This document shows positions 49,004-62,525 of a DNA stretch of 64,000 nt, one piece after another (the first letter of the stretch is position 1; every line of letters begins with the position of its first letter). The notes beneath the pieces were generated by a model, which had not been told where the DNA came from, ran no database searches, and saw only the letters and a list, made by a program, of their open reading frames with translations. This DNA comes from Syntrophaceae bacterium (GTDB lineage Bacteria; Desulfobacterota; Syntrophia; Syntrophales; UBA2185), in contig PLLV01000101.1 of the NCBI GenBank assembly GCA_003142295.1, positions 9,781-73,780 of the forward strand. Reading direction: 5' to 3'. The translations under genes were made by a program, and so were the position numbers.

Positions 49004-49353
49004 ACTTTAAATGTGATCGCAGCATAGAGCTCCCAAATTATTCCTTTTCAGTTTTAGATACTTATATCCTTAACAGATACCAATAGTTAGTACAGTATAC
49101 CCCATGACCTGCATCAAAAGGCTCCATAGAATGAAAGTGGCGGAATAATGGCGAAGTGGTTCATTCTTCAATTTATAGTAGCATATTTTATATAATGCGA
49201 GGATTTAGGCAGTCGTCACGGGGAAATTATAAACGTGTTATTGATTATGAAGGGAGGAGGTGATCATCAAGTTAGATTAGAGTTATGATCCGGTAAACGA
49301 AGTCTGGAAGAATTTAACAACGTCTATTGGAACTAAAAAAGGAGGATTACATT

Positions 49354-50646
49354 ATGGCAGGAGAATTACGGCCTCGTTGGGGTCAACCCATGACAGGCAT
49401 TGTTTCTACCATAGCATTTTTTGTGATCGCTTGGATTACCTGGTATCTTTTCAGCGATCCCCGTGGTCCCATGGGCTTATTTCCTTATCCGTTTGTTCTT
49501 ATACTCGCCTGGATGATTCTGGTGGGTTTATGGCAGCACATGTTTTTGGGTGACTGGCCGTTTCAGAAATTGTCGCCACCGGCCAGAGGGGTTGTCATGA
49601 CCATTGTGAACCTGGTCCTTGTGTGGTTTGTTATCGAAGTCATTTTTGATCGGGTTTTAGGTCTGGGGTTCAATTTCTTAAGTCAAACCAATCTTAATGC
49701 ACTGGCAGCGTCGGGGGCGACGGTGTTGCCCGAAGCGTGCGGGAAAACGCTGACTTTCGAAGCGATGAAAGGCGCACACTTTGCGCAGAGTGCAGGCGTA
49801 GGATTTGTGTTGATTGGATTCTTCGCGTATCCCTTTGTGACAATCCTTTTTGCTAAATGGCCTATCCGTCCCAGTAACCTGGAGCAGCCCGCTGCCGGTT
49901 TAGCCGAGATCGGTTGGTGCAGTCTGCTTACCCTTTTCTTCTACGTCGTTCTTATCGTTCCCTTCTTTGGTTTGGTCTTCGAGAAGATGTTCGGTAACGC
50001 CTATGGAATGAACACTCCCTGGTGGGGCGGTATCGGCGGCACTCCCCACTTGCACTGGGTATTCGGCTGGTGGGAGTGGGCGGTCATCGTCCTCTTCATG
50101 ACGCCCAACGTCTGGCGTATGAAACCCTGGTCGCTCATCAAGCTTCCTCAGCCCTGGAAAGGTCTTATCTCTTTCTGCGGCGTCATAGTCCTTGCCTATA
50201 TCTGTGCCTTGATCTGTTTAAAACTGATTCCGCTATGGGCGAACATGGATGATATCACTCACCATCTGCCCGCCGGGGATAAGGGGAATCCCATTCGCTT
50301 CCTGTGGTACCACGCGGCGGAGATTGCCGGTTTTACCCTGATTCCATTCCTCCAGTGGCATCACTACTTTGACGATATGTGCCCGCAGAAGAATGTAGAT
50401 TCCTGGGGAGGTTTCTGGTTTAGAACAGTAGGTGTGCTTATTTTAACAGCGGTTCTGTACGTATGTTTCTACCACCTCAACTTCGGTTACTGGGGACTGG
50501 GCAATCATCATATGCACGGTGACCTTGCGGAAAGATTTATCCACGGTGAATCCCTCATCTGGAATTTCTGGTGGATCATCCCACTTCTCTGGAACGAGTG
50601 GTTCTTCCACAAGTGGCCTTTCTACGTTCATGATGAGCATCATTAA
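49354..50646 (+). CDS. Hypothetical polytopic membrane protein, Trp/His-rich (430 aa)
   Basis: The ATG at 49354 lies 8 nt after AAGGAGG. I estimate about 10-12 hydrophobic segments. Motifs include HLHWVFGWWEW, LQWHHYFDD, NHHMHGD and the C-terminal VHDEHH. I recognised no family. Confidence 0.75.
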   Translation: MAGELRPRWGQPMTGIVSTIAFFVIAWITWYLFSDPRGPMGLFPYPFVLILAWMILVGLWQHMFLGDWPFQKLSPPARGVVMTIVNLVLVWFVIEVIFDRVLGLGFNFLSQTNLNALAASGATVLPEACGKTLTFEAMKGAHFAQSAGVGFVLIGFFAYPFVTILFAKWPIRPSNLEQPAAGLAEIGWCSLLTLFFYVVLIVPFFGLVFEKMFGNAYGMNTPWWGGIGGTPHLHWVFGWWEWAVIVLFMTPNVWRMKPWSLIKLPQPWKGLISFCGVIVLAYICALICLKLIPLWANMDDITHHLPAGDKGNPIRFLWYHAAEIAGFTLIPFLQWHHYFDDMCPQKNVDSWGGFWFRTVGVLILTAVLYVCFYHLNFGYWGLGNHHMHGDLAERFIHGESLIWNFWWIIPLLWNEWFFHKWPFYVHDEHH

Positions 50647-50785: not shown

Positions 50786-51841
50786 ATGGCGAGAATTCGC
50801 GGGAAAGCTAAGAAAGCTGAAATTATGACGCTTGAAGAAGCGGTCAAGAAATACATGCATAACGGGATCCAGATTGCCTTCAGCGGGTTTACGGGGTTCA
50901 ACAGAAACCCGATGGCCTTTGCCTGGGAAGTGGTAAGACAAAAATTCAAAGACCTGCATGTTATCGACAGGCATGGCAGTTGCTGCACCTGGCTCCTTAA
51001 CACCGTCGGCGCTATTAAGATTTATGAAACCGACTGGATGGGCTGGGGCGAGATGGCGGGAAAACTCGACATCAACATGGAAAGGATTTACAAGGCGGGG
51101 AAGATAATCCTTGAAGACTACTCTCACGGCGCAATGGCCATGAGATTCCTTGCCGGGGCAATTGGGGCGCCGTTCATTCCCTATTATGCTCCTCTGGGAT
51201 CGGACCTCTACAATCCGGACTATGATGCATTGGGAAAAGCTGGCCTGAGGAATGGTAAAAATCCGAGAATTGCAAAGAAGAAGTTTATCCAGATTGAGGA
51301 ACCCTTCTATGGTGATGGAGAGGTCGTCCTGCTTCCCGCAGCTAGGCCCGAACTGGCAGTCATTCACGTATCTAAGGTAGGCGACAAGGGGACGGCGAGG
51401 TGGCGAGGTATCGGGACGATCGATAAAGAAATGGCCTTTGCATGCGACAAGGTCGTAATCACGGCCGAAGAGGTAGTTCCCGAAGGAGAGATGAGGAAGG
51501 ATCCGGAAGCCAACCAGATTCCCTTCTTTACTGTTGACGCCATTGTGGAAGTGCCCTGGGGAGCCTTCCCGAGCGGTGTCCCTTTCTATTATGACTATGA
51601 CGTGCCCTTTATGAGGGAGATGGATAAAGCATCAAGAAACGTGGAGGATTTGAAAAAATGGATCGATGAATGGGTTTTTGGCCCGAAGAGCTGGGAAGAA
51701 TTTATTGTTAAGCTTGGTGCAAAGAAATTGTTGTCTCTCAGAGCGGATAGCACCACTGGATACAGCACCAAGATGATGCGAGGAAAGAACCCGGCACCGA
51801 GGATGAAGATGCCTTTATCCGTCGCTCGAAGTGGCTATTAA
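50786..51841 (+). CDS. Family I CoA-transferase subunit A (glutaconate-CoA-transferase GctA-like)
   Basis: The 351-aa product begins with the typical MTLEEAVKKYMHNGIQIAFSGF and shows a GctA-like pattern. An AAAGGAGGAAG RBS precedes it. Confidence 0.8.
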   Translation: MARIRGKAKKAEIMTLEEAVKKYMHNGIQIAFSGFTGFNRNPMAFAWEVVRQKFKDLHVIDRHGSCCTWLLNTVGAIKIYETDWMGWGEMAGKLDINMERIYKAGKIILEDYSHGAMAMRFLAGAIGAPFIPYYAPLGSDLYNPDYDALGKAGLRNGKNPRIAKKKFIQIEEPFYGDGEVVLLPAARPELAVIHVSKVGDKGTARWRGIGTIDKEMAFACDKVVITAEEVVPEGEMRKDPEANQIPFFTVDAIVEVPWGAFPSGVPFYYDYDVPFMREMDKASRNVEDLKKWIDEWVFGPKSWEEFIVKLGAKKLLSLRADSTTGYSTKMMRGKNPAPRMKMPLSVARSGY

Positions 51842-51860
51842 AGGAAAGGGGGGAATGAAA

Positions 51861-52757
51861 ATGGCTAAAACAATGGAACAATTGATGGAGTTGATCGATA
51901 AGATACCCAGTGAGAAAGCCAAGGCGGGTGAATTTATCCTGCCGGAATTGATGGCTATCGCTATTGCTCACGAGGTCCTGAACGATGATGTCGTCTTTGC
52001 GGGTACGGGGCTTCCCATGGTGGGGATTATGGCTGCCAACATGCTGAATGCACCGAATGCGGTGTTAATATACGAATCGGGGATATGCGACGGAAAGACC
52101 ATGCATGTGCCCATGTCCGTGAGCGACCAGAGGGCGGCCAATTTGTGTTCCACCCTGGGCGGACTGGTGGATACCTTTGGTTATTATTTGCAGCAGGGTT
52201 TTGTGACCTTGGGGTTTCTGGGAGGTGCCGCTATCGATAAATACGGCGGCGTAAATGTTACATCCATCGGTGATTACTATGCCCCAGTGCACCGCTTCAC
52301 AGGTTCCGGGGGCAATTCCGACATAGGAACCATGTCGAAAAGAGTTGCATACATCATCCTTCAGGAAAAGAGGAGATTCCTGGAGAGAAATGATTATACC
52401 ACAACGCCCGGCTGGTGGTGCTGGGATTTCAAGAAACGGGAGTGGAAACCGAAGAAGGAGGTCTGGAAAGGGACGCCCTATGCGGATTGCGGCCCCTGTG
52501 GTGTGGTAACGAATATGGGCGTATACCGGTTTGATGACAAGGGAATCATCTACCTGGAAACCTGCCACCCCGGTGTCACCGTGGAGAAGATCAAAGAGAA
52601 TTGCGGATTTGACCTGAATGTTTCAAAAGTTAAAGGTGAAACTCCAATCCCGACTTACAAGGAGCTCTTTGTCCTCAGGGAGTTCGTTGATCCGGAATTG
52701 ATCTTCCTGCCGGCGAAAACGGAATATCCCGCCGCGATCAAGTCAATTATTGGTTAG
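51861..52757 (+). CDS. Family I CoA-transferase subunit B (GctB-like)
   Basis: Contains VVFAGTGLPM and VLIYESGICDG (candidate catalytic Glu in an ESG context). I chose the ATG at 51861, 8 nt after AAGGGGGG. The track ORF starts at 51831. Confidence 0.8.
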   Translation: MAKTMEQLMELIDKIPSEKAKAGEFILPELMAIAIAHEVLNDDVVFAGTGLPMVGIMAANMLNAPNAVLIYESGICDGKTMHVPMSVSDQRAANLCSTLGGLVDTFGYYLQQGFVTLGFLGGAAIDKYGGVNVTSIGDYYAPVHRFTGSGGNSDIGTMSKRVAYIILQEKRRFLERNDYTTTPGWWCWDFKKREWKPKKEVWKGTPYADCGPCGVVTNMGVYRFDDKGIIYLETCHPGVTVEKIKENCGFDLNVSKVKGETPIPTYKELFVLREFVDPELIFLPAKTEYPAAIKSIIG

Positions 52758-52833: not shown

Positions 52834-54000
52834 CTGAATTTAGATCTGACAGAAGAACAAACAATCATTCAGGACACAGCTCGGCGCTTCGCAAGGACAG
52901 AACTGGAACCGGCAGCGGCGCGGCTCGACCAAGTAGGCGATCGTGACACCTTCTTAAAGAATTTGAAGAAACTCGCCAGCCTTGGCTTGATGGGCATAAA
53001 CGTTGATAGTCGCTATGGAGGGTCTGATGCCGGTGTGGTGGCCTTTAGTCTTGCCATCACAGAGATTGCAAGGGCCTGTGCCTCGACGGCAGTAACCATG
53101 TCTGTCAACAATCTGGTCTGTGAGGTGATTCAGGCAATTGGCTCTGAGGAACAGAAAATGGCCTATATCCCGAAGATCTGTTCCGGTGAATACCCTGCCG
53201 GCGGGTTTGGTTTGACTGAGACCGTGGCCGGTTCCGATGCTGCCGCGCTCCAGACATCTGCCGTTCTGGACGGCGATCAATGGGGACTCAACGGTTCAAA
53301 GATGTTTATTACCAGTGCTGAATATGCGGGCGTCTTTGTCGTTTGGGCGGTGACCGACAAGAAGGCGAAGAAGGGCAGCGGTATCAGCACATTTCTGGTC
53401 GAGAACGGAATTCGCGGTCTAACGATCGGAAGAGAAGAACACAAGATGGGGCAGCATGCTTCTTCAACAAATGAACTGATCTTTGAGGACTGCCGGATAC
53501 CAAAATCAGCCCTTATGGGGAAAATGAATGGCGGCTTCAAGACAGCTACGGGAGAACTCGCAGGTGGACGCATAGGCATCGGCTCTCTCGCTTTAGGTGT
53601 CGGACTTGCTGCCATGGATTATGCCACACGATATGCAATGGAGAGAAAGCAGTTCGATCAGTCCATAACAAATTTCCAGGCTATCCAGTGGATGATTGCC
53701 GAATCCTATACGGAGCTGGAGGCGGCAAGGCTTCTCCTCATGAATGCAGCGTTCAAGAAAGAACAGGGCAAACCCTTTGCAAGAGCAGCATCTATGGCGA
53801 AGTATTTTGCGACCGAAGCCGCCGATAGGGCCTGCTTCAATGCCGTGCAGATGCTCGGTGGATACGGATATACCAATGAATTCCCTGTCGAACGATATGC
53901 GAGAGACGTCCGGATTACGTTGATCTATGAAGGGACCAACCAGATCCAACGGATGATAATTGCCAGAGACATTCTTAACAGCCTCAAAGAATCGACATAG
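52834..54000 (+). CDS. Acyl-CoA dehydrogenase (short/branched-chain type) with apparent CTG start
   Basis: The track ORF (from TTG 52963) lacks the conserved N-terminus. The in-frame upstream sequence reads (L)NLDLTEEQTIIQDTARRFARTELEPAAARLD, which aligns with MNFGLTDDQRDVRDMVKKFAEQEIKPIAAELD of the second ACAD. An in-frame stop lies at 52816..52818. The only start-like codon after the AGGAGGAAGG RBS is CTG at 52834. Confidence 0.8.
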   Translation: MNLDLTEEQTIIQDTARRFARTELEPAAARLDQVGDRDTFLKNLKKLASLGLMGINVDSRYGGSDAGVVAFSLAITEIARACASTAVTMSVNNLVCEVIQAIGSEEQKMAYIPKICSGEYPAGGFGLTETVAGSDAAALQTSAVLDGDQWGLNGSKMFITSAEYAGVFVVWAVTDKKAKKGSGISTFLVENGIRGLTIGREEHKMGQHASSTNELIFEDCRIPKSALMGKMNGGFKTATGELAGGRIGIGSLALGVGLAAMDYATRYAMERKQFDQSITNFQAIQWMIAESYTELEAARLLLMNAAFKKEQGKPFARAASMAKYFATEAADRACFNAVQMLGGYGYTNEFPVERYARDVRITLIYEGTNQIQRMIIARDILNSLKEST

Positions 54001-54296: not shown

Positions 54297-55652
54297 ATGG
54301 AAAAAGTGCCGCAGAAGCTGGAAAAGACCAGGGCTGAGATGTATGCTCATGCGCCAATCTCAAAGTTCGGTGAGAGAAAACCTGATTTCTCAACCATGGG
54401 ACGGAAAATAAAAAATCAGTACAGGAATGTTAGAGAAGTTGTCGTCGTGGAAGCATGCCGGACGCCGTACGGCAGATTCGGGGGGGCACTTAAAGATTTT
54501 ACCGCTCCCGAACTTGGAGCTTTGGCGATAAAGGAAGTACTCAGGCGGACGAATGGAAAGGTCAAACCATCCGATGTGGATTACGTTTTCATGGGGCATG
54601 TAGTTCCTGCAGGATGTGGACAGATACCCAGCAGGCAAGCAACTATCCTGGCCGGTCTCCCAGAATCCATTCCCTCCATTACGATCAATAAGGTATGTTC
54701 TTCAGGTATTAAGCCGATCGATCTTGCAGTCCAGATGATTCAACTGGGAAGAGCCGAGATTTGCATAGCGGGCGGCCAGGAAAGCATGAGCAATGGCCCG
54801 TATGCTCTGCCTGAGATGAGGTGGGGGGCAAGGATGGGACTCCCGAACCGGCCAGTCCTTGATTTAGTTGTTTACGATGGGCTCTGGGACGCATTTTATA
54901 ACCGGCACATGGCCGTTCACGGTTCTGAGGTTGGCGATGAATTCGGAGTTACACGGCAGGATCAGGATGAATGGGCTCTTCGCTCCCAGCTGGCAGCAGT
55001 TGAGGCAATGAAGACGGGAAAACTGGACGACGAGATATTTCCCGTCGAGGTGAAGCAGGGGAAAAAGGTCGTCATCTTCGACAAAGACGAAGGACCAAGG
55101 CCGGAGACGACTATAGACGGGTTAGCCAAATTGCCGCCGGTCTTCAATCATAAAAGCCCGGTTACCGGAGGTCCCGGAAGTGTTACGGCCGGTAATGCAC
55201 CGGGTGTCAATGACGGAGGAGATGTCTGTCTGGTAATGAGCAGGGAAATGGCCGACAAACTGGGCATAAAACCCCTGTTTACCATACTCGATTACGCCGA
55301 GGTTTCCCAGCCACCGAAGGATATTGCGACGGTGCCGGGACTCGCAATCAAGAAACTTCTCGAGCAGAATAACATGACTCTCGATAAAATAGATCTGCTG
55401 GAAATCAATGAAGCCTTTGCTGCCGTTGTCTTGGTTAGCGCCCGCTATATCTTAGGCATGAGCAAGGAAGATATGTATAAGAGGGTCAATGTGAATGGAA
55501 GCGCCATCGCATATGGTCACCCTATAGGTGCGACGGGCGCGAGGATTGTCATGACTCTTGCCTATGAACTGCGGCGAAGAGGCGGCGGGATCGGGATATG
55601 CGGAATCTGCTCGGGCCATGCTCAGGGTGACGCGATGCTGATCAAAGTGTAA
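54297..55652 (+). CDS. Thiolase (acetyl-CoA C-acyltransferase family) with N-terminal extension
   Basis: Contains VVVVEACRTPYGRFGG, NKVCSSGIKP (nucleophile Cys), GNAPGVNDGG, NGSAIAYGHPIGATGARI and GICGICSGHAQG. The start is uncertain: TTG 54204, ATG 54297 after GGGGG, or ATG 54396. Confidence 0.85.
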   Translation: MEKVPQKLEKTRAEMYAHAPISKFGERKPDFSTMGRKIKNQYRNVREVVVVEACRTPYGRFGGALKDFTAPELGALAIKEVLRRTNGKVKPSDVDYVFMGHVVPAGCGQIPSRQATILAGLPESIPSITINKVCSSGIKPIDLAVQMIQLGRAEICIAGGQESMSNGPYALPEMRWGARMGLPNRPVLDLVVYDGLWDAFYNRHMAVHGSEVGDEFGVTRQDQDEWALRSQLAAVEAMKTGKLDDEIFPVEVKQGKKVVIFDKDEGPRPETTIDGLAKLPPVFNHKSPVTGGPGSVTAGNAPGVNDGGDVCLVMSREMADKLGIKPLFTILDYAEVSQPPKDIATVPGLAIKKLLEQNNMTLDKIDLLEINEAFAAVVLVSARYILGMSKEDMYKRVNVNGSAIAYGHPIGATGARIVMTLAYELRRRGGGIGICGICSGHAQGDAMLIKV

Positions 55653-55800: not shown

Positions 55801-56658
55801 ATGGCAGTTAAGACATTCGGTGTTATCGGAGCCGGCCAGATGGGCAACGGCATAGCTCAGGTTGCTGCAAGCACAGGGGGACTGAATGTAATCATGAATG
55901 ACATTGCAGACCAGTTTGTCGACAAGGGGTACGATACGATTTCAAAAAACCTGGACCGCCTTGTTGCCAAGGAAAAGCTGACGGCTGACCAGAAAAAAGA
56001 GATCATTGGCCGCATCAAGAAGAGCACGAAGCTGGAAGACATGAAGGATGCCGATTTTGTTGTGGAGGCAGCGATAGAACGAGAAGATCTCAAACTTGGG
56101 ATATTCAGAAAACTTGATGAAGTCTGCAAGCCCGGGGTAATCCTTGCCACGAATACTTCCTCTATTCCCATTACGAGGATAGCCGGTGCAACAAAGAGGC
56201 CTGCCTTAGTCATCGGGATGCATTTTATGAACCCCGTTCCCGTGATGAGACTCGTCGAGATCATCAGGGGTTTGGCTACCTCTCAGGAGACGTACAACAC
56301 GACGGAAGCGCTGTCCAAGCAGTTTGGGAAGGTTCCCGTGGAATGCAATGACTTTCCGGGATTTATAGCGAACAGGATCCTTATGCCCATGATCAATGAG
56401 GCCGTTTATACCCTGATGGAAGGAGTGGGCACGCCAAAGGCCATTGATGACATTATGGTATTGGGCATGAATCACCCCATGGGTCCTCTGGCGTTGGCTG
56501 ACCTGATTGGTCTGGACACATGCTGGGCTATAATGGACGTTCTTTACAAGGGATTTGGCGATTCCAAGTACCGTCCCTGTCCGCTCCTTAAGAAATACGT
56601 GGATGCGGGTTACATGGGGAGAAAGACGGGAAAAGGATTCTACGATTACAGCAAGTAA
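55801..56658 (+). CDS. hbd: 3-hydroxyacyl-CoA (3-hydroxybutyryl-CoA) dehydrogenase
   Basis: Contains [16 protein letters not shown] (Rossmann fold), HFMNPVPVM and [11 protein letters not shown]. The ATG at 55801 follows GGGAGGAAGG. Confidence 0.9.
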
Positions 56659-56855: not shown

Positions 56856-57638
56856 ATGGAATTCAAGAACCTCTTGTTTGCAGTTGAGGATGGTGTCGCT
56901 ACAATAACGTTTAACAGGCCCAAGGCCTTAAATGCGATGAATACGGAAACGATGAAGGAGCTTATGGATGCGGCTACCCTCTGTAGGAATGATGACGCCA
57001 TAAAGGTTCTCATCCTCACCGGGTCAGGAGAAAAGGCCTTTGTAGCAGGCGCTGACATATCAGAGATGCAGAACCTGCGGCCTAAAGAGGCCCTTGCCTT
57101 TATGGAGCTGGGTAATGAAACGCTGCGATTGATTGAAACGCTGCCCAAGCCCTCCATCGCTGCCGTGAACGGTTTCGCTTTGGGCGGCGGCACGGAAATT
57201 TCCATGGCCTGTGATATGAGATTTGCATCGGAAACGGCCCGTTTCGGCCAGCCGGAAATACTGATCGGATTGATACCGGGATGGGGAGGAACTCAGAGGA
57301 TTTCGCGTTTAATAGGAATGGGAAGGGCCAAGGAACTCATCATGTGTGGCGAGCAGGTCGATGCGAAAAGGGCCTACGACGTCGGTCTTGTAAACAGGAT
57401 ATTTCCCCTCGACCAGCTTCTCCCGGAGACGAAAAAGTTTGCCAGGAAATTGGCCGGTATGCCTGGATTCGCCCTGAAGATGGCCAAGCATTCGATCAAT
57501 TATGGTTATGATCTTGCGCTTGATAACGGGATCAGGCTGGAAATGGAATGCTGCGCCCAGTGCTTCAGCACGGATGATCAGAAAGAAGGAATGAAGGCCT
57601 TCCTCGAAAAGAGAAAGCCTGTTTACACGGGGAGTTGA
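56856..57638 (+). CDS. crt: Enoyl-CoA hydratase (crotonase family)
   Basis: Contains ATITFNRPKALNAM, AFVAGADISEM and AAVNGFALGGGTEISMACD. The ATG at 56856 follows AAGGGGG. The track ORF starts earlier at 56748. Confidence 0.9.
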   Translation: MEFKNLLFAVEDGVATITFNRPKALNAMNTETMKELMDAATLCRNDDAIKVLILTGSGEKAFVAGADISEMQNLRPKEALAFMELGNETLRLIETLPKPSIAAVNGFALGGGTEISMACDMRFASETARFGQPEILIGLIPGWGGTQRISRLIGMGRAKELIMCGEQVDAKRAYDVGLVNRIFPLDQLLPETKKFARKLAGMPGFALKMAKHSINYGYDLALDNGIRLEMECCAQCFSTDDQKEGMKAFLEKRKPVYTGS

Positions 57639-57693: not shown

Positions 57694-58842
57694 ATGAATT
57701 TTGGTTTAACAGATGATCAGCGGGACGTGAGAGATATGGTGAAGAAGTTTGCAGAGCAGGAGATTAAACCCATAGCAGCAGAGCTGGACAAGACCCACAG
57801 GCATCCGGAAGAGATCTGCCGTAAACTCGGAGAAATGGGTATTATGGGCATAGCCGTGCCTCAGGAATATGGTGGGGCGGGCATGGACGTGGTGACGTAC
57901 GTTCTCTCCCTGATTGAGATTTCCAAAGCCTGTGCAAGCTGCGGTGTCATTGTATCGGTCAACAATTCCCTTTACGGGTACCCGATATTAGCCTTCGGGA
58001 CGGAAGAGCAGAAGAAAAAGTATCTACCGCCTGTGGCGAGCGGGCAGGTTGAGGGGTGCTATGGATTGACAGAGCCAAGCGCCGGTTCGGATGCCGCCGC
58101 ACTGAAGTGTCGGGCCGTATTGAAAGGGGACAAATATATTGTCAACGGGACCAAAATCTTCATAACGAACGGCAATGTGGCGCATTACTGCGTTTTAGCT
58201 GCCACGACCGATCCCGCATTAGGATACAAGGGGGTCATCAATCTCATCCTGGATATGAAGAACACCCCGGGTTTTAAAGTGGGCAAGATCGAGGAGAAAA
58301 TGGGAATCCTTGCTTCCGGAACGGCTGAGCTCGTCTTTGAGGATGCTGAGATACCGGCGGCAAACCTCCTGGGTAAACCGGGACAGGGTTTTAAGCAGAT
58401 GATGATGGGGCTTGACGCGGGGAGAATCGGTATTGGTTCCCAGGCCTGCGGTATCGGCCGGGCGGCCATGGAAGACGCCCTCGCTTATGCAAAAGAAAGA
58501 GTGCAGTTCGGTAAGCCGATTGCAACATTCCAGGCGATCCAGTTCAAGCTCGCCGACATGGCAATGGAGCTCGATGCAGCGGAATTGCTGCTCCTTCGTG
58601 CCGCCTGGATGGAAGACAATCATCTCGAATTTGAGAAAGAATCGGCCATGGCAAAGTGTTATGCGTCCGATGTGGCAATGAGGGCTGCCGTTGAAGGCGT
58701 GCAGATATTCGGTGGTTACGGCTACACAAAAGAGTATCCGGCCGAAAGACACATGCGGGATGCGAAGATCTGTCAGATCTATGAAGGGACGAACGAGATT
58801 CAGAGAGTGGTTATCTCGAGAAAACTTTTGGGCATGAGATAA
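57694..58842 (+). CDS. Acyl-CoA dehydrogenase (butyryl-CoA dehydrogenase-like)
   Basis: The 382-aa product contains MNFGLTDDQ..., YGLTEPSAGSDAA, FGGYGYTKEYPAERHMRDAKICQIYEGTNEIQ. Confidence 0.92.
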   Translation: MNFGLTDDQRDVRDMVKKFAEQEIKPIAAELDKTHRHPEEICRKLGEMGIMGIAVPQEYGGAGMDVVTYVLSLIEISKACASCGVIVSVNNSLYGYPILAFGTEEQKKKYLPPVASGQVEGCYGLTEPSAGSDAAALKCRAVLKGDKYIVNGTKIFITNGNVAHYCVLAATTDPALGYKGVINLILDMKNTPGFKVGKIEEKMGILASGTAELVFEDAEIPAANLLGKPGQGFKQMMMGLDAGRIGIGSQACGIGRAAMEDALAYAKERVQFGKPIATFQAIQFKLADMAMELDAAELLLLRAAWMEDNHLEFEKESAMAKCYASDVAMRAAVEGVQIFGGYGYTKEYPAERHMRDAKICQIYEGTNEIQRVVISRKLLGMR

Positions 58843-58934: not shown

Positions 58935-59234
58935 TTATTTTTCGATTTTGAAGGGTGAGAACTCATACTCTTTTTCTTCAACTGCGAAAGCTACCCTGTC
59001 TTCTTCGTTTACTGTGAGGTTACCCTCTATAATGCGGCGGCAACCAAAATCGAAAAAGTTTACTTGGTGCGTAGGCATATCCTTTTCATCCATTTGTTTG
59101 TAGTATTGCTCTTTTTCAGCGGGTGTTATTTCCCTGATGACGAGTTTTTGGCATCGTTCGCGGGCTTCCCATGTACCTTGGCGTATGGTGACCCGGTAAT
59201 TGCCGTGAAACTTTATGGGCATTTTGATTTTCAT
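58935..59234 (-). CDS. Hypothetical 99-aa protein, opposite strand within the acyl-CoA gene block
   Basis: The ATG lies 6 nt after GGAGG. The sequence is MKIKMPIKFHGNYRVTIRQGTWEARERCQKLVIREITPAEKEQYY... I recognised no family. Confidence 0.6.
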   Translation of the reverse strand: MKIKMPIKFHGNYRVTIRQGTWEARERCQKLVIREITPAEKEQYYKQMDEKDMPTHQVNFFDFGCRRIIEGNLTVNEEDRVAFAVEEKEYEFSPFKIEK

Positions 59235-59442: not shown

Positions 59443-61125
59443 ATGTATTTTGCAAAAGAGGTGCTGAGTCAATCCAGCGAGCTCAAGAAAAAATGGGAGG
59501 ATGAGGTCCGGAGGGTGGTCAGTAAAGTTCCTGACCAGAGGGAACGATGGTCTACCGTTTCAGATCTCGAAATCAAGAGGCTCTATGGTCCTGATGACAT
59601 AAAGGATATGGACTTTACCCGTGATATTGGATACCCCGGGCAGTTTCCATTTTTACGGGGTAATCAGGCGACGGGTTATCGCGGACGATACTGGACGTTC
59701 AGGATGTTTTCCGGCATGGGAAGCGCTGAAGACACCAACAAACGGTGGCACATGCTTCTCAAAGAGGGACAGACCGGCCTCAGTACGGCCTTTGATTTTC
59801 CAACTCTTATGGGCTACGATTCGGACTCGCCCAAGGCCCGTGGTGAGTGTGGGAAGTGCGGGGTCGCCATAGATACCCTCGAGGATTTGCTGCAATTAGT
59901 GGACGGTATTCCCATGGATGAGGTTACCACGTCCATGACAATCAATCCGCCGGCTACTGTGCTCTGGGCGATGTACTGTGCAGCGGCACAGATCAAGGGT
60001 ATACCGCTTACCAAGATAGGCGGCACGATACAGAATGACATGCTGAAAGAATTCATCGCACAGAAGACGTTCATGTGTCCGCCGGAGCCGTCAGTCAGAC
60101 TCATAAGTGACACCGTTGAATTCGGGACGAAGTATGTTCCCAGATGGAACACCATCAGCATCAGCGGGTACCATATCAGGGAAGCCGGTTCCACGGCGGT
60201 TCAGGAGCTTGCTTTTACCCTTAGAGACGGCATGGAGTATGTGGAGGACGTCGTTAACCGGAAAGGATTAAATGTCGATGAATTTGCTCCGCGGTTTTCA
60301 TTTTTCTTTAATTCCCATGTAGATTTCTTCGAGGAGATCTGTAAGATGCGTGCTGCCCGGAGAATCTGGGCAAAAGTAATGCGGGACCGCTATAAGGCCA
60401 AGGACCCGAGATCGTGGTGGATGCGCTTCCATACACAAACCGCCGGGTGTTCACTGACGGCTCAGCAGCCGTACAACAACGTCGTGCGGACGGCCACGCA
60501 AGCCCTCGCCGCTGTCCTTGGCGGCACTCAGTCCTTGCACACCAATTCCCTTGACGAGGTGATGTGCCTGCCGTCGGATTCCGCCGTGCAGATTGCGCTT
60601 CGAACCCAGCAGATCATCGCGGAAGAGACCGGCGTTGCCAACACGGTTGATCCGTTGGCAGGTTCGTACTTCGTCGAAGCTTTAACCAACGAAATGGAAG
60701 AGCAGACTTGGGACTACATCAATAAGATTGACGAGATGGGCGGTATGGTTGCCGCAATAGATAAGGGGTTCCCGCAGTTGGAGATAGCTGATGCGGCCTA
60801 CAAGTTCCAGAGGCAGATAGACTCCTGTGAAAAGATTATGGTCGGCGTCAACAAATATGTTACCGATGAACAGATACCCATCCCTCTTTTAGAGATTGAT
60901 GATAAAGTTGAAGAGGATCAGATCGCGCGGTTGAATGCAGTCCGCAGAAAGCGGGACAATAAGGCAGTGAAAAAGAGTCTCGAAGACATTAAGAATGCGT
61001 GCAAGAAGGGCGAAAATGTCATGCCCCACTGTATTGAGGCCGTTAAGAATCTGGCCAGTATCCAGGAGGTGTGCGACGTCTATCGTGAGCTCTATGGCGA
61101 GTACCGTGATCCGGGACTCTATTAG
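59443..61125 (+). CDS. B12-dependent acyl-CoA mutase large (substrate-binding) subunit, isobutyryl-CoA-mutase-like
   Basis: The 560-aa product starts at the ATG after GGAGG. It shows an ICM-like backbone (GKCGVAIDT, SISGYHIREAGSTA, FFFNSHVDFFEEI, FHTQTAG). Phe89 and Gln207 occupy the positions of MCM Tyr89/Arg207. There is no fused B12 domain. Confidence 0.88.
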   Translation: MYFAKEVLSQSSELKKKWEDEVRRVVSKVPDQRERWSTVSDLEIKRLYGPDDIKDMDFTRDIGYPGQFPFLRGNQATGYRGRYWTFRMFSGMGSAEDTNKRWHMLLKEGQTGLSTAFDFPTLMGYDSDSPKARGECGKCGVAIDTLEDLLQLVDGIPMDEVTTSMTINPPATVLWAMYCAAAQIKGIPLTKIGGTIQNDMLKEFIAQKTFMCPPEPSVRLISDTVEFGTKYVPRWNTISISGYHIREAGSTAVQELAFTLRDGMEYVEDVVNRKGLNVDEFAPRFSFFFNSHVDFFEEICKMRAARRIWAKVMRDRYKAKDPRSWWMRFHTQTAGCSLTAQQPYNNVVRTATQALAAVLGGTQSLHTNSLDEVMCLPSDSAVQIALRTQQIIAEETGVANTVDPLAGSYFVEALTNEMEEQTWDYINKIDEMGGMVAAIDKGFPQLEIADAAYKFQRQIDSCEKIMVGVNKYVTDEQIPIPLLEIDDKVEEDQIARLNAVRRKRDNKAVKKSLEDIKNACKKGENVMPHCIEAVKNLASIQEVCDVYRELYGEYRDPGLY

Positions 61126-61149
61126 GACTGATTGAAGGAGGAGATGGTA

Positions 61150-61560
61150 ATGGCTAAGAGAAAGATTCGTGTTATGGTAGCAAAACCAGGTCTTGACGGT
61201 CATGATCGGGGCGCCAGGATTTTAGCCAGGTGTTTCCGGGACGCTGGTTTTGAAGTAATATATACGGGGTGTCATCAGACACCGGCGATGATTGCAGCGT
61301 CGGCGATTCAGGAAGATGTGGATGTCGTAGGCCTAAGCTGTCTATCGGGAGCGCACAGGTATTTATTTCCCCAGGTAGTTAATCTATTGAGGGAAAAAGG
61401 TGCAGGTGATATCTCCGTGATCGGCGGGGGAATCATCCCTGAACAGGATTTTCAGAAACTCTATGACGCAGGCATCAAGGCGATTTTCGTGCCGGGAACT
61501 ACCCTGGATACGATCGTGGCGTGGGTTAACAAAAATATAAAACCTGTGGAAAGAACATAA
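61150..61560 (+). CDS. Acyl-CoA mutase small subunit (cobalamin-binding domain)
   Basis: Contains RVMVAKPGLDGHDRGA (DxHxxG base-off/His-on motif) and GLSCLSG...VIGGG. The start is ATG 61144 or 61150, after GAAGGAGGAG. Confidence 0.9.
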   Translation: MAKRKIRVMVAKPGLDGHDRGARILARCFRDAGFEVIYTGCHQTPAMIAASAIQEDVDVVGLSCLSGAHRYLFPQVVNLLREKGAGDISVIGGGIIPEQDFQKLYDAGIKAIFVPGTTLDTIVAWVNKNIKPVERT

Positions 61561-62525
61561 TGGAGAGAGGAAAGATGATTAAGGCGGGTGACGTTCGGAC
61601 TGCCTCCCGCCTTATAAGAGACATAGAAGATAGTATCCCCGAAGCAAAACTGACTATAAAACATATTTTCCCATATACGGGCAAGGCCCAGGTCGTTGGG
61701 ATTACCGGGTCTCCTGGAGCAGGGAAGAGCACTATTGTTGACGGTCTCATTGAGACAAGCCGTAAGAAGGAAAAAACGGTAGGGGTTCTCGCCGTTGATC
61801 CGACAAGTCCCTTTACGGGAGGAGCAACGCTCGGTGATAGGATCCGTATGCAGCGCCATTCCGAGGATATAGGCGTCTTCATACGGAGCCTCGCCACGCG
61901 CGGTTCCTTGGGCGGGCTCTCAAAGGCAGTTGGCGATGCCATCCATGTTATGGATGCAATGGGGAAAGATGTGATATTTGTAGAAACCGTAGGTACGGGT
62001 CAACAGGAGGTGGAGATTATCCACTATGCCCATACGGTAGTCGTTGTCCTTGTGCCTGGTATGGGAGATGAAATCCAGGCAATCAAGGCAGGAATCATGG
62101 AGATTGCAGACGTATTCGTCGTCAACAAGGCGGATCGTGACGGAGCAGCGAAACTCCAGCGGGAATTGATGACCATGATTGAAATGTCACCGATTCCTCC
62201 CGGGGGTTGGCGGCCGCCTGTCGTTACAATCAGAAATTCCTTTAAGCCGGAAGAGTTTGACCAGGACATTCAAACATTATCTTCCAAGGTTCACGAACAC
62301 TATGAATATCTAATAAGCAGTGATCTTATCGGTGACAGGCAGCGGCGCAAGAGGCTGCATGAGCTGAATGAGGCCCTGCGATCCAGTATCCTCGAACCTG
62401 TGTTAGGGATGCTCGTCAAAACTGGTGAACTCGACCGTATGGTCGAAAAAATACTGAAAAAGGAATCGGATCCTTCTACTCTGGCCGAAGAAATAGCCAG
62501 GAAATATTTACAGGGGTGTTTTTAA
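61560..62525 (+). CDS. meaB: MeaB/ArgK-type G3E GTPase (mutase chaperone)
   Basis: Contains ITGSPGAGKSTI (P-loop), VETVGTGQ and VVNKADR. Its start overlaps the small-subunit stop (TAATG). Confidence 0.9.
   Translation: MERGKMIKAGDVRTASRLIRDIEDSIPEAKLTIKHIFPYTGKAQVVGITGSPGAGKSTIVDGLIETSRKKEKTVGVLAVDPTSPFTGGATLGDRIRMQRHSEDIGVFIRSLATRGSLGGLSKAVGDAIHVMDAMGKDVIFVETVGTGQQEVEIIHYAHTVVVVLVPGMGDEIQAIKAGIMEIADVFVVNKADRDGAAKLQRELMTMIEMSPIPPGGWRPPVVTIRNSFKPEEFDQDIQTLSSKVHEHYEYLISSDLIGDRQRRKRLHELNEALRSSILEPVLGMLVKTGELDRMVEKILKKESDPSTLAEEIARKYLQGCF

Follow-up and report, generated by a model that had tools for sequence, protein, structure and literature searches.

The DNA analysed here, called the window, is a 64,000-nucleotide stretch of a Syntrophaceae bacterium genome. 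In it, genes for a CoA-transferase and for a complete series of butyrate beta-oxidation enzymes are followed by those for an acyl-CoA mutase, a B12-binding subunit and a MeaB-type chaperone; the adenosyltransferase gene cobO is not adjacent to the mutase. The genes and the sites within them are as follows.

50786..52757, + strand: two-subunit family-I CoA-transferase (50786..51841 and 51831..52757; PF01144 on both ORFs)
52963..54000, + strand: second acyl-CoA dehydrogenase, start possibly further upstream (Pfam Acyl-CoA_dh_N/M/1)
54297..55652, + strand: acetyl-CoA C-acetyltransferase (thiolase; TIGR01930, 409 bits)
55801..56658, + strand: 3-hydroxybutyryl-CoA dehydrogenase (NF004474, 454 bits, above the cut-off of 408)
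56856..57638, + strand: short-chain enoyl-CoA hydratase (crotonase; NF004475, 334 bits)
57694..58842, + strand: acyl-CoA dehydrogenase, butyryl-CoA dehydrogenase-like, 382 aa (best NCBIfam model acryloyl-CoA reductase/acyl-CoA dehydrogenase, under the equivalog cut-offs)
58935..59234, - strand: 99-aa protein between the acyl-CoA dehydrogenase and the mutase, family not assigned (no Pfam match)
59443..61125, + strand: acyl-CoA mutase large (substrate-binding) subunit, ICM type, 560 aa (100 % cluster P0001)
59695..59724, + strand: motif T-F-R87-M88-F89-S90-G91-M92-G93-S (codons acg ttc agg atg ttt tcc ggc atg gga agc)
59707..59709, + strand: Phe89 (ttt), at the position of Tyr89 in methylmalonyl-CoA mutase (MCM)
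59782..59796, + strand: S114-T115-A116-F117-D118 (LSTAFD as in IcmF), with Ala116 at the HcmA Asp117 position
60061..60063, + strand: Gln207 (cag, in EFIAQKTF), at the position of MCM Arg207
60169..60174, + strand: Tyr243-His244 (SGYH), the conserved catalytic pair of acyl-CoA mutases
61132..61560, + strand: small B12-binding subunit, 142 aa (TIGR00640, 169 bits, over cut-off)
61195..61212, + strand: DxHxxG motif of the small subunit, D22-G-H24-D-R-G27 (DGHDRG), the His-on B12 motif
61560..62525, + strand: MeaB-type G-protein chaperone, 321 aa (TIGR00750, 314 bits, cut-off 240.75)
61707..61733, + strand: P-loop GSPGAGKST of the chaperone

The mutase ORF starts at an ATG downstream of a GGAGG ribosome-binding site, and residues are numbered from that ATG. 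It scores 754 bits against TIGR00641, the model of the acyl-CoA mutase N-terminal domain (E = 7e-227; cut-off 303.8). The conserved SGYH and HTQT segments are present, with Y243, H244, H330 and Q332 invariant in a 25-sequence alignment; SGYH also aligns with that of MCM, HcmA and IcmF. Among solved structures, HcmA (4r3u) scores highest at 543 bits, ahead of the MCMs (473-481 bits) and IcmF (258 bits). The NCBIfam MCM equivalog NF006944 gives 632 bits, under its cut-off of 876, and the IcmF equivalog NF045497 gives 332 bits against a cut-off of 1500, the window genes being three separate ones. A separate mutase paralog of the RQYAGFG/Arg type lies on contig C43 of the same genome. An AlphaFold2 model built from the 25-sequence alignment has a mean pLDDT of 65 and falls below 50 at residues 28-91 and 115-139, the motif regions, which is too low for pocket geometry.

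Substrate-pocket residues were assigned by HMMER alignment to characterised enzymes. Phe89 and Gln207 align with Tyr89 and Arg207 of Propionibacterium shermanii MCM (1REQ) and the homologous Tyr and Arg of the human enzyme (2XIJ), and with Ile90 and Gln208 of HcmA from Aquincola tertiaricarbonis (4R3U). Their counterparts in IcmF of Cupriavidus metallidurans (4XC6) are Phe598 and Gln742, a numbering confirmed from the PDB sequence, which reads PTRMF598AGEGD, LSTAFD and GQ742NT. The window enzyme thus has the pair typical of isobutyryl-CoA mutase (ICM), Phe at MCM Tyr89 and Gln at MCM Arg207. The original prediction had called it ICM-like rather than MCM-like on these two residues, and both this assignment and the position of the Gln codon held, as did the corollary that a free-carboxylate substrate is unlikely: the enzyme has neither Arg207 nor Tyr89. 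The motif had also been read correctly, although its end was placed at 59722, two bases short.

That prediction went further and saw an atypical, remodelled pocket with a possibly new specificity, comparing the motif with canonical forms. Both canonical forms exist: WTIRQYAGFS is seen for MCM in the PDB alignments, and RQFAGFG occurs in Phe/Gln-type proteins, namely the representatives P0181, P0239 and P0290 and a Haloarcula marina plasmid protein (WTMRQFAGFGT/KEYIAQKE). A tblastn search of plasmids for a named IcmF or IcmA recovered only MCM-type, meaA and other family members, the Streptomyces plasmid copy being RQYAGFG/Arg. A remodelled pocket, by contrast, was not supported. Because the crystallised and biochemically confirmed IcmF reads RMF, Met88 counts as an ICM feature rather than a departure; Met also precedes the key Phe in three IcmF equivalogs of the window's phylum, and position 88 is mixed in 17 other Phe/Gln-type clusters at 50 % identity (Met in 6, Gln in 6, Leu in 4, Pro in 1). 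The exact heptad RMFSGMG is absent from characterised ICMs, while its most striking element, RMF, is present.

The variant is not rare either. Across 110 species-level orthologs, no change occurs in R87, M88, F89, GLSTAFD or KEFIAQKT, so the motif is no chance match, and with an intact reading frame a pseudogene was likewise ruled out. The heptad reads RMFSGMG in 73 of these genomes, RMFAGMG in 31 and RMFSGFG in 4. Among orthologs at least 75 % identical, Ser90 interchanges with Ala and Met92 with Phe or Leu, which makes it unlikely that either residue sets specificity. Met92 is nonetheless the sole clade-specific motif residue, found in none of the 17 other Phe/Gln clusters and in one of 67 MCMs, and may subtly affect substrate range. 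RMF(S/A)G(M/F)G is the signature of a clade that is very common among anaerobes, with no sign of new specificity; since it is normal in a large clade of syntrophs and partly shared with IcmF, the apparent oddity is largely ordinary.

About two thirds of the species genomes sampled in the window's order (135 of 201) have a member of the clade, which spans 49 of the order's 65 genera as well as Bacillota, including about 40 % of sampled Syntrophomonadales. Its members come from Syntrophales, Smithella, Syntrophomonadales and some sulfate reducers, mostly under the database name 'methylmalonyl-CoA mutase family protein'. The clade has a tree support of 100 and joins other Phe/Gln clusters with the 'IAQKE' form. 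The order mutL-mutS-meaB is kept in essentially all 80 related loci, followed by a corrinoid adenosyltransferase in 46 of them, and in 11 of 81 loci the mutase has a homolog of the 99-aa protein as its neighbour. Genes of butyrate beta-oxidation stand next to the mutase in a minority of lineages only, among them the window, its nearest relatives and, independently, Desulfohalobiaceae. No IcmF was found in the source genome or in sampled genomes of the same order, which implies that the RMF-clade enzyme would be their ICM. The D. multivorans proteogenomics paper contains nothing on an isobutyrate mutase.

A physiological link is suggested by Syntrophothermus lipocalidus. The mutase of strain DSM 12680 (WP_013174940.1) is 80 % identical to that of the window, carries WTMRMFSGMGD, LSTAFD and KEFIAQKT, and is the only TIGR00641 match in the complete 2.4-Mb genome. 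Its locus reads cobO-mutL-mutS-meaB and corresponds, with the same four-gene content, to the putative ICM cluster Slip_0757-0760 of S. lipocalidus TGB-C1 (Narihiro et al. 2016, PMC5017805), a strain that degrades isobutyrate through isomerisation to butyrate (PMC5017805). By elimination, as the only mutase in the genome, the ortholog is putatively tied to this isomerisation. It has the same RMFSGMG core as the window enzyme, differing only in flanking residues, which again speaks against a new specificity. The two loci share the mutL-mutS-meaB order and the 99-aa neighbour, but cobO lies directly upstream only in S. lipocalidus. Similarly, whereas the window mutase is joined to a CoA-transferase/beta-oxidation module, no beta-oxidation genes occur in the 6 kb upstream and 6.5 kb downstream searched in S. 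lipocalidus.

Compared with other known mutases, the window enzyme shares with IcmF the R-M-F, LSTAFD, TIN(G/P)PA and SGYH segments and dependence on adenosylcobalamin (AdoCbl) and a MeaB-type G protein. It differs in that IcmF joins small subunit, G domain and large subunit in one 1093-aa polypeptide, has A-G-E-G where the window enzyme has S-G-M-G, and gives large-subunit matches of 258-332 bits, far below the equivalog cut-off. The split architecture is that of HcmA/HcmB and also of IcmA/IcmB of Streptomyces cinnamonensis, which has separate large and small subunits with Phe80/Gln198 and in which IcmA is reported to read RQFAGFG. With MCM it has in common the fold, the radical chemistry, SGYH, HTQT and R87; the difference lies in RQY89AGF plus the carboxylate-binding Arg207 of MCM against RMF89SGM plus Gln207.

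Taken together, sequence comparison and gene context make it quite probable that this is the large-subunit gene of a split AdoCbl-dependent isobutyryl-CoA/butyryl-CoA mutase (EC 5.4.99.13). Counting against it, HcmA rather than IcmF is the nearest solved structure by overall sequence, and few lineages have the beta-oxidation genes next to the mutase. We infer its catalytic activity and physiological direction as follows. The large subunit would act with its B12-binding partner encoded next to it and with the MeaB G-protein chaperone, with AdoCbl held base-off/His-on through the histidine of DxHxxG. As in the homologous MCM and IcmF, the Co-C bond would break homolytically to give a 5'-deoxyadenosyl radical that takes a hydrogen from the substrate, and the thioester carbonyl would then shift between C2 and the methyl carbon. 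Where MCM has Tyr89 and Arg207 to hold a carboxylate, Phe89 and Gln207 would form a neutral pocket for the alkyl group. Within the window, the mutase would supply a compact catabolic module: isobutyrate activated by the CoA-transferase would be isomerised to butyryl-CoA, which the acyl-CoA dehydrogenase, crotonase, 3-hydroxybutyryl-CoA dehydrogenase and thiolase would convert to two acetyl-CoA.

Other substrates have to be weighed against this. The clade could be ICM-like yet prefer longer 2-methyl-branched acyl-CoAs, for example converting 2-methylvaleryl-CoA to hexanoyl-CoA as the carbon-skeleton rearrangement step by which Smithella and related Syntrophales dismutate propionate to acetate and butyrate, with isobutyryl-CoA a side or second substrate. 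The Smithella labelling pattern of de Bok et al. 2001 reportedly fits such a shift. Six Smithella/Smithellaceae genomes have the RMF clade and a fused RQYAGFAT MCM as their only acyl-CoA mutases, and no enzyme has yet been assigned to the dismutating step (PMC13685792). The two acyl-CoA dehydrogenases, thiolase, dehydrogenase and hydratase of the window are the set that assembly and later breakdown of a C6 intermediate would need, and Met92 is specific to the clade. However, S. lipocalidus and Syntrophomonas, neither of them known for propionate dismutation, carry identical pocket motifs, the clade reaches far beyond Smithella, its pocket segments match those of IcmF, a C4 enzyme, and none of the papers searched links Smithella with an isobutyryl-CoA mutase. 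We consider a C6 preference improbable.

A mutase for 2-hydroxyisobutyryl-CoA/3-hydroxybutyryl-CoA (HCM/RCM) or pivalyl-CoA/isovaleryl-CoA (PCM) is suggested by the top score of HcmA, by a recent comparative study that annotates Smithella mutases as 'hcmAB' and by 3-hydroxybutyryl-CoA being an intermediate of the adjacent pathway; for PCM, the minor pivalyl-CoA activity of IcmF also counts. This is nevertheless highly improbable. In place of Ile90 and Asp117, the determinants of HCM, the window enzyme has Phe89 and Ala116, and position 116 is Asp in both Ile/Gln representative clusters but never in the RMF clade. The presence of Ala116 at the Asp117 position argues that the window mutase is not an HCM, which we rejected, and nothing in its gene context hints at tert-butyl or hydroxy-acid metabolism. 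Least credible of all is a methylmalonyl-CoA mutase, the name most database entries give. Overall similarity to MCMs is high (about 480 bits), but the carboxylate-holding Tyr and Arg are replaced by Phe and Gln, the MCM equivalog score stays below cut-off and the genome has its separate MCM-type paralog; MCM was rejected on these grounds.

The chemistry of an isobutyryl-CoA/butyryl-CoA mutase is not new. Isomerisation between butyrate and isobutyrate is routinely observed in anaerobic digesters and sediments, and to our knowledge no enzyme that performs it has been purified from an anaerobe. Our comparisons now putatively tie to it a mutase clade that is very common, strongly conserved and usually mislabelled "methylmalonyl-CoA mutase". 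The combination of R-M-F-(S/A)-G-(M/F)-G, LSTAFD and KEFIAQKT provides an annotation signature for the clade, which corrects database names and aids metabolic reconstructions of syntrophs. Should the improbable C6 preference prove true, the clade would be the long-sought rearrangement enzyme of Smithella-type propionate dismutation; on the same slim chance, the module of CoA-transferase, thiolase, dehydrogenase, hydratase, two acyl-CoA dehydrogenases and mutase would be a complete dismutation operon. It is in this possible use of C6 branched acyl-CoAs in Smithella propionate dismutation that the wider interest of the clade may lie.

The mutase gene sits in the following setting in the window.

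49327..50646, forward strand: 439-aa ORF with no Pfam match, between a PAS/LuxR regulator and a CoA-transferase
58935..59234, reverse strand: 99-aa protein with no Pfam match, between the second acyl-CoA dehydrogenase and the mutase
59443..61125, forward strand: acyl-CoA mutase large subunit, 560 aa, ATG start with GGAGG ahead
directly downstream of the mutase: B12-binding subunit, 142 aa (TIGR00640; DxHxxG motif as DGHDRG)
directly downstream, with the B12-binding subunit: MeaB G-protein chaperone (TIGR00750, above cut-off)

Direct reading of codons 59695..59724 (acg ttc agg atg ttt tcc ggc atg gga agc) gives TFRMFSGMGS, and the Gln of EFIAQKTF is encoded by cag at 60061..60063. Counted from the ATG, the determinants are Phe89 and Gln207; starting instead at a TTG 45 nt upstream would lengthen the protein by 15 residues, whereas orthologs span only 559 to 562 aa. 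HMMER alignment to solved structures pairs these residues with Tyr89/Arg207 of Propionibacterium shermanii methylmalonyl-CoA mutase (MCM), the homologous Tyr/Arg pair of human MCM, and Ile90/Gln208 of the 2-hydroxyisobutyryl-CoA mutase (HCM) HcmA. Codons and alignments thus bear out both residues of the original prediction, which had placed the motif's end two bases off. The protein matches TIGR00641, the acyl-CoA mutase N-terminal domain (754 bits), and falls below the equivalog cut-offs for MCM (632 versus 876) and for IcmF, the fused isobutyryl-CoA mutase (ICM; 332 versus 1500). An AlphaFold model, built with 75 to 95% identical sequences plus one paralog as input, has pLDDT below 50 at residues 28 to 91 and 115 to 139.

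The original prediction also held that RMFSGMG is atypical and marks a remodelled pocket. We aligned the window protein, HcmA, human MCM, and further proteins to three IcmF equivalogs from the window's phylum (>1900 bits to NF045497); the equivalogs read PTRMFAGEGD, RLSTAFDS, and KEDQGQNT. A PDB search with one equivalog found identical strings in crystallised Cupriavidus metallidurans IcmF (4XC6), so the Met before the key Phe and LSTAFD are common to the window protein and an ICM confirmed by both biochemistry and structure. Not counting the 20-residue tag of 4XC6, residue 598 is the Phe of TRMFAGEG and residue 742 the second Gln of DQGQNT, a pair published as specificity residues. Phe89 and Gln207 align with this pair, upholding the ICM-type assignment. 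Of 1.84 billion 50%-identity representatives, searched exhaustively with HMMER, 4173 proved related at E ≤ 1e-30; we sorted the best 150 by their residues at the two determinant positions.

Residues at motif positions among the best 150 of 4173 relatives
Position 88, Tyr/Arg clusters (n = 67): Gln 55
Position 88, other Phe/Gln clusters (n = 17): Met 6, Gln 6, Leu 4, Pro 1
Position 90, other Phe/Gln clusters (n = 17): Ala 15, Ser 1, Thr 1
Position 92, Tyr/Arg clusters (n = 67): Met 1
Position 92, other Phe/Gln clusters (n = 17): Phe 11, Glu 3, Tyr 1, Gln 1, Leu 1, Met 0

Among these 150, only Met92 and the Ser90-Met92 pair are peculiar to the window's clade; this much of the supposed atypicality stands, while RMF does not. 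Inside the clade the motif itself varies: RMFSGMG occurs in 73 of 110 species-level genomes (RMFAGMG 31, RMFSGFG 4, RMFAGFG 1, RMFSGLG 1), throughout which R87, M88, F89, GLSTAFD, and KEFIAQKT are unchanged, and in 81 of the 120 nearest clusters, all sharing 80% identity or more (RMFSGFG 18, RMFAGMG 17). Because Ser/Ala and Met/Phe/Leu interchange among 75 to 95% identical orthologs, Ser90 and Met92 are poor candidates for specificity determinants. Remodelling is therefore not supported; the two sites drift within a clade that is very common among anaerobes, and RMF is the IcmF signature. Phe/Gln-type mutases, 52 to 57% identical, also occur on plasmids of Deinococcus sp. KNUC1210 (WTMRMFAGFGS/KEFIAQKE, meaB nearby) and Haloarcula marina (WTMRQFAGFGT/KEYIAQKE), so both RMF and RQF are present in named aerobes and archaea.

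The strongest functional link for the clade is Syntrophothermus lipocalidus, which isomerises isobutyrate to butyrate before degrading it and whose putative ICM cluster is Slip_0757-0760 (Narihiro et al. 2016, PMC5017805); an equal inference was drawn for a Syntrophomonas MAG (Ziels et al. 2019). The DSM 12680 ortholog, WP_013174940.1/ADI01538.1 (exact sequence match, position 782 kb), shares 80% identity with the window protein, carries WTMRMFSGMGD and KEFIAQKT, and is the sole TIGR00641 match in the single-contig 2.4-Mb genome. Its locus holds a homolog of the 99-aa protein and then cobO-mutL-mutS-meaB, and these last four genes equal the described cluster in gene content. Clade members are likewise the only acyl-CoA mutases in a complete Syntrophomonadaceae MAG chromosome, Desulfosporosinus sp. 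HMP52, Desulfobotulus alkaliphilus, and 'Ca. Syntrophocurvum alkaliphilum'. In a FastTree phylogeny, the window and S. lipocalidus proteins share a tight, fully supported clade beside other Phe/Gln 'IAQKE' clusters, with HcmA and IcmF farther away; we draw no conclusion from the deep branches, as their support is weak. A phylum-wide search did not find IcmF in the window's genome or four sampled genomes of its order, which fits the clade being their putative ICM.

Other identities fare less well. MCM fails at Phe89 and Gln207, which stand in place of Tyr/Arg, and HCM fails at Phe89 (Ile90 in HcmA) and at Ala116, which sits where HcmA has Asp117 and so rules out the hydroxyl-binding arrangement. 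Pivalyl-CoA mutase is not favoured by the gene context. The most interesting alternative, although very improbable, is that the clade catalyses the 2-methylvaleryl-CoA to hexanoyl-CoA rearrangement of Smithella propionate dismutation. The enzymes of that step were never identified, according to a 2026 comparative study (PMC13685792); the window module's enzyme set would suit the shift, and the only acyl-CoA mutases in six Smithella/Smithellaceae genomes are this clade and a fused MCM, typed by its RQYAGFAT motif in a regex scan. However, organisms not known to dismutate propionate have identical pocket motifs, the clade extends far beyond Smithella, and the literature searched yielded no link between Smithella and ICM. 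The fused proteins at L123-L126 (Smithella/Smithellaceae genomes G274 and G277-G279) score ~870 bits to TIGR00641 and have 716 to 738 aa; in Smithella, no orthogroup is annotated as MCM according to a recent comparative study.

Among the species genomes sampled from the window's order, 135 of 201 carry the ICM-type clade; it is present in 102 of the 143 genomes of high quality and spans 49 of 65 genera. Identity ranges from 66 to 100% and is at least 75% in all but two matches. The clade also occurs in ~44 of 121 sampled Syntrophomonadales (Bacillota; 75 to 85%). Named hosts include Syntrophales, Smithella, Syntrophus, Syntrophomonas, Desulfosporosinus, Desulfobotulus alkaliphilus, and Desulfohalobiaceae. 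Across 80 related loci, mutL-mutS-meaB is essentially universal, with a CobO/BtuR-type corrinoid adenosyltransferase next in 46. The mutase has thiolase, dehydrogenase, hydratase, and acyl-CoA dehydrogenase genes next to it in the nearest relatives and in one further deltaproteobacterial MAG; this adjacency arises independently in Desulfohalobiaceae and is not seen in most lineages.

Additional mutase-related genes were also seen. In loci of Syntrophomonas and Desulfosporosinus (L029, L030, L039, L050-L052, L054, L063, L067, L085), meaB is followed after ~1 kb by a second B12-binding-domain gene, 36 to 53% identical to mutS. In some Syntrophales/Syntrophaceae MAGs the ICM-type operon is directly preceded by an MCM-type paralog (KEYAARGT, 53% identical) that has a small subunit of its own, which places two mutase systems in tandem (L043:4749..6434 region; L045:4834..6507). 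The window's genome has five large-subunit paralogs (contigs C43, C208, C62, C106; loci L001, L003, L004, L005). That on C43 is MCM-type (RQYAGFG, Arg); motif comparison identified no matching characterised specificity class for those on C208 (WTQRQLAGFG, ...ETAITTAP where the Arg/Gln segment is expected), C62 (LHIRQVTGLG, Arg207 region deleted), and C106 (highly divergent, WLKSFIVSYAT).

Upstream of the mutase, the same-strand order is PAS/LuxR regulator, 439-aa protein (a possible transporter of the pathway substrate), two-subunit family-I CoA-transferase, acyl-CoA dehydrogenase, thiolase, 3-hydroxybutyryl-CoA dehydrogenase, crotonase, and second acyl-CoA dehydrogenase, followed by the opposite-strand 99-aa gene. 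Homologs of the latter adjoin the mutase in 11 of 81 related loci from two phyla, among them those of Desulfobotulus alkaliphilus and S. lipocalidus, where the 45% identical copy immediately precedes cobO-mutL; this uncharacterised protein may serve the mutase as an accessory or regulatory partner. By homology, the small subunit would bind AdoCbl base-off/His-on, with MeaB gating cofactor loading; Co-C homolysis would yield a 5'-deoxyadenosyl radical that abstracts a substrate hydrogen, and the thioester carbonyl would move between C2 and the methyl carbon. The pocket would be neutral, lined by Phe89 and Gln207 where MCM has its carboxylate-binding Tyr/Arg. Combined, these mutase and upstream genes make up a complete predicted pathway that converts a short branched acid into acetyl-CoA. 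Sequence comparison leaves an unusual pocket unsupported and indicates that the mutase gene adds one more member to a known clade, which is already regarded in the literature as the ICM of syntrophic isobutyrate degraders.
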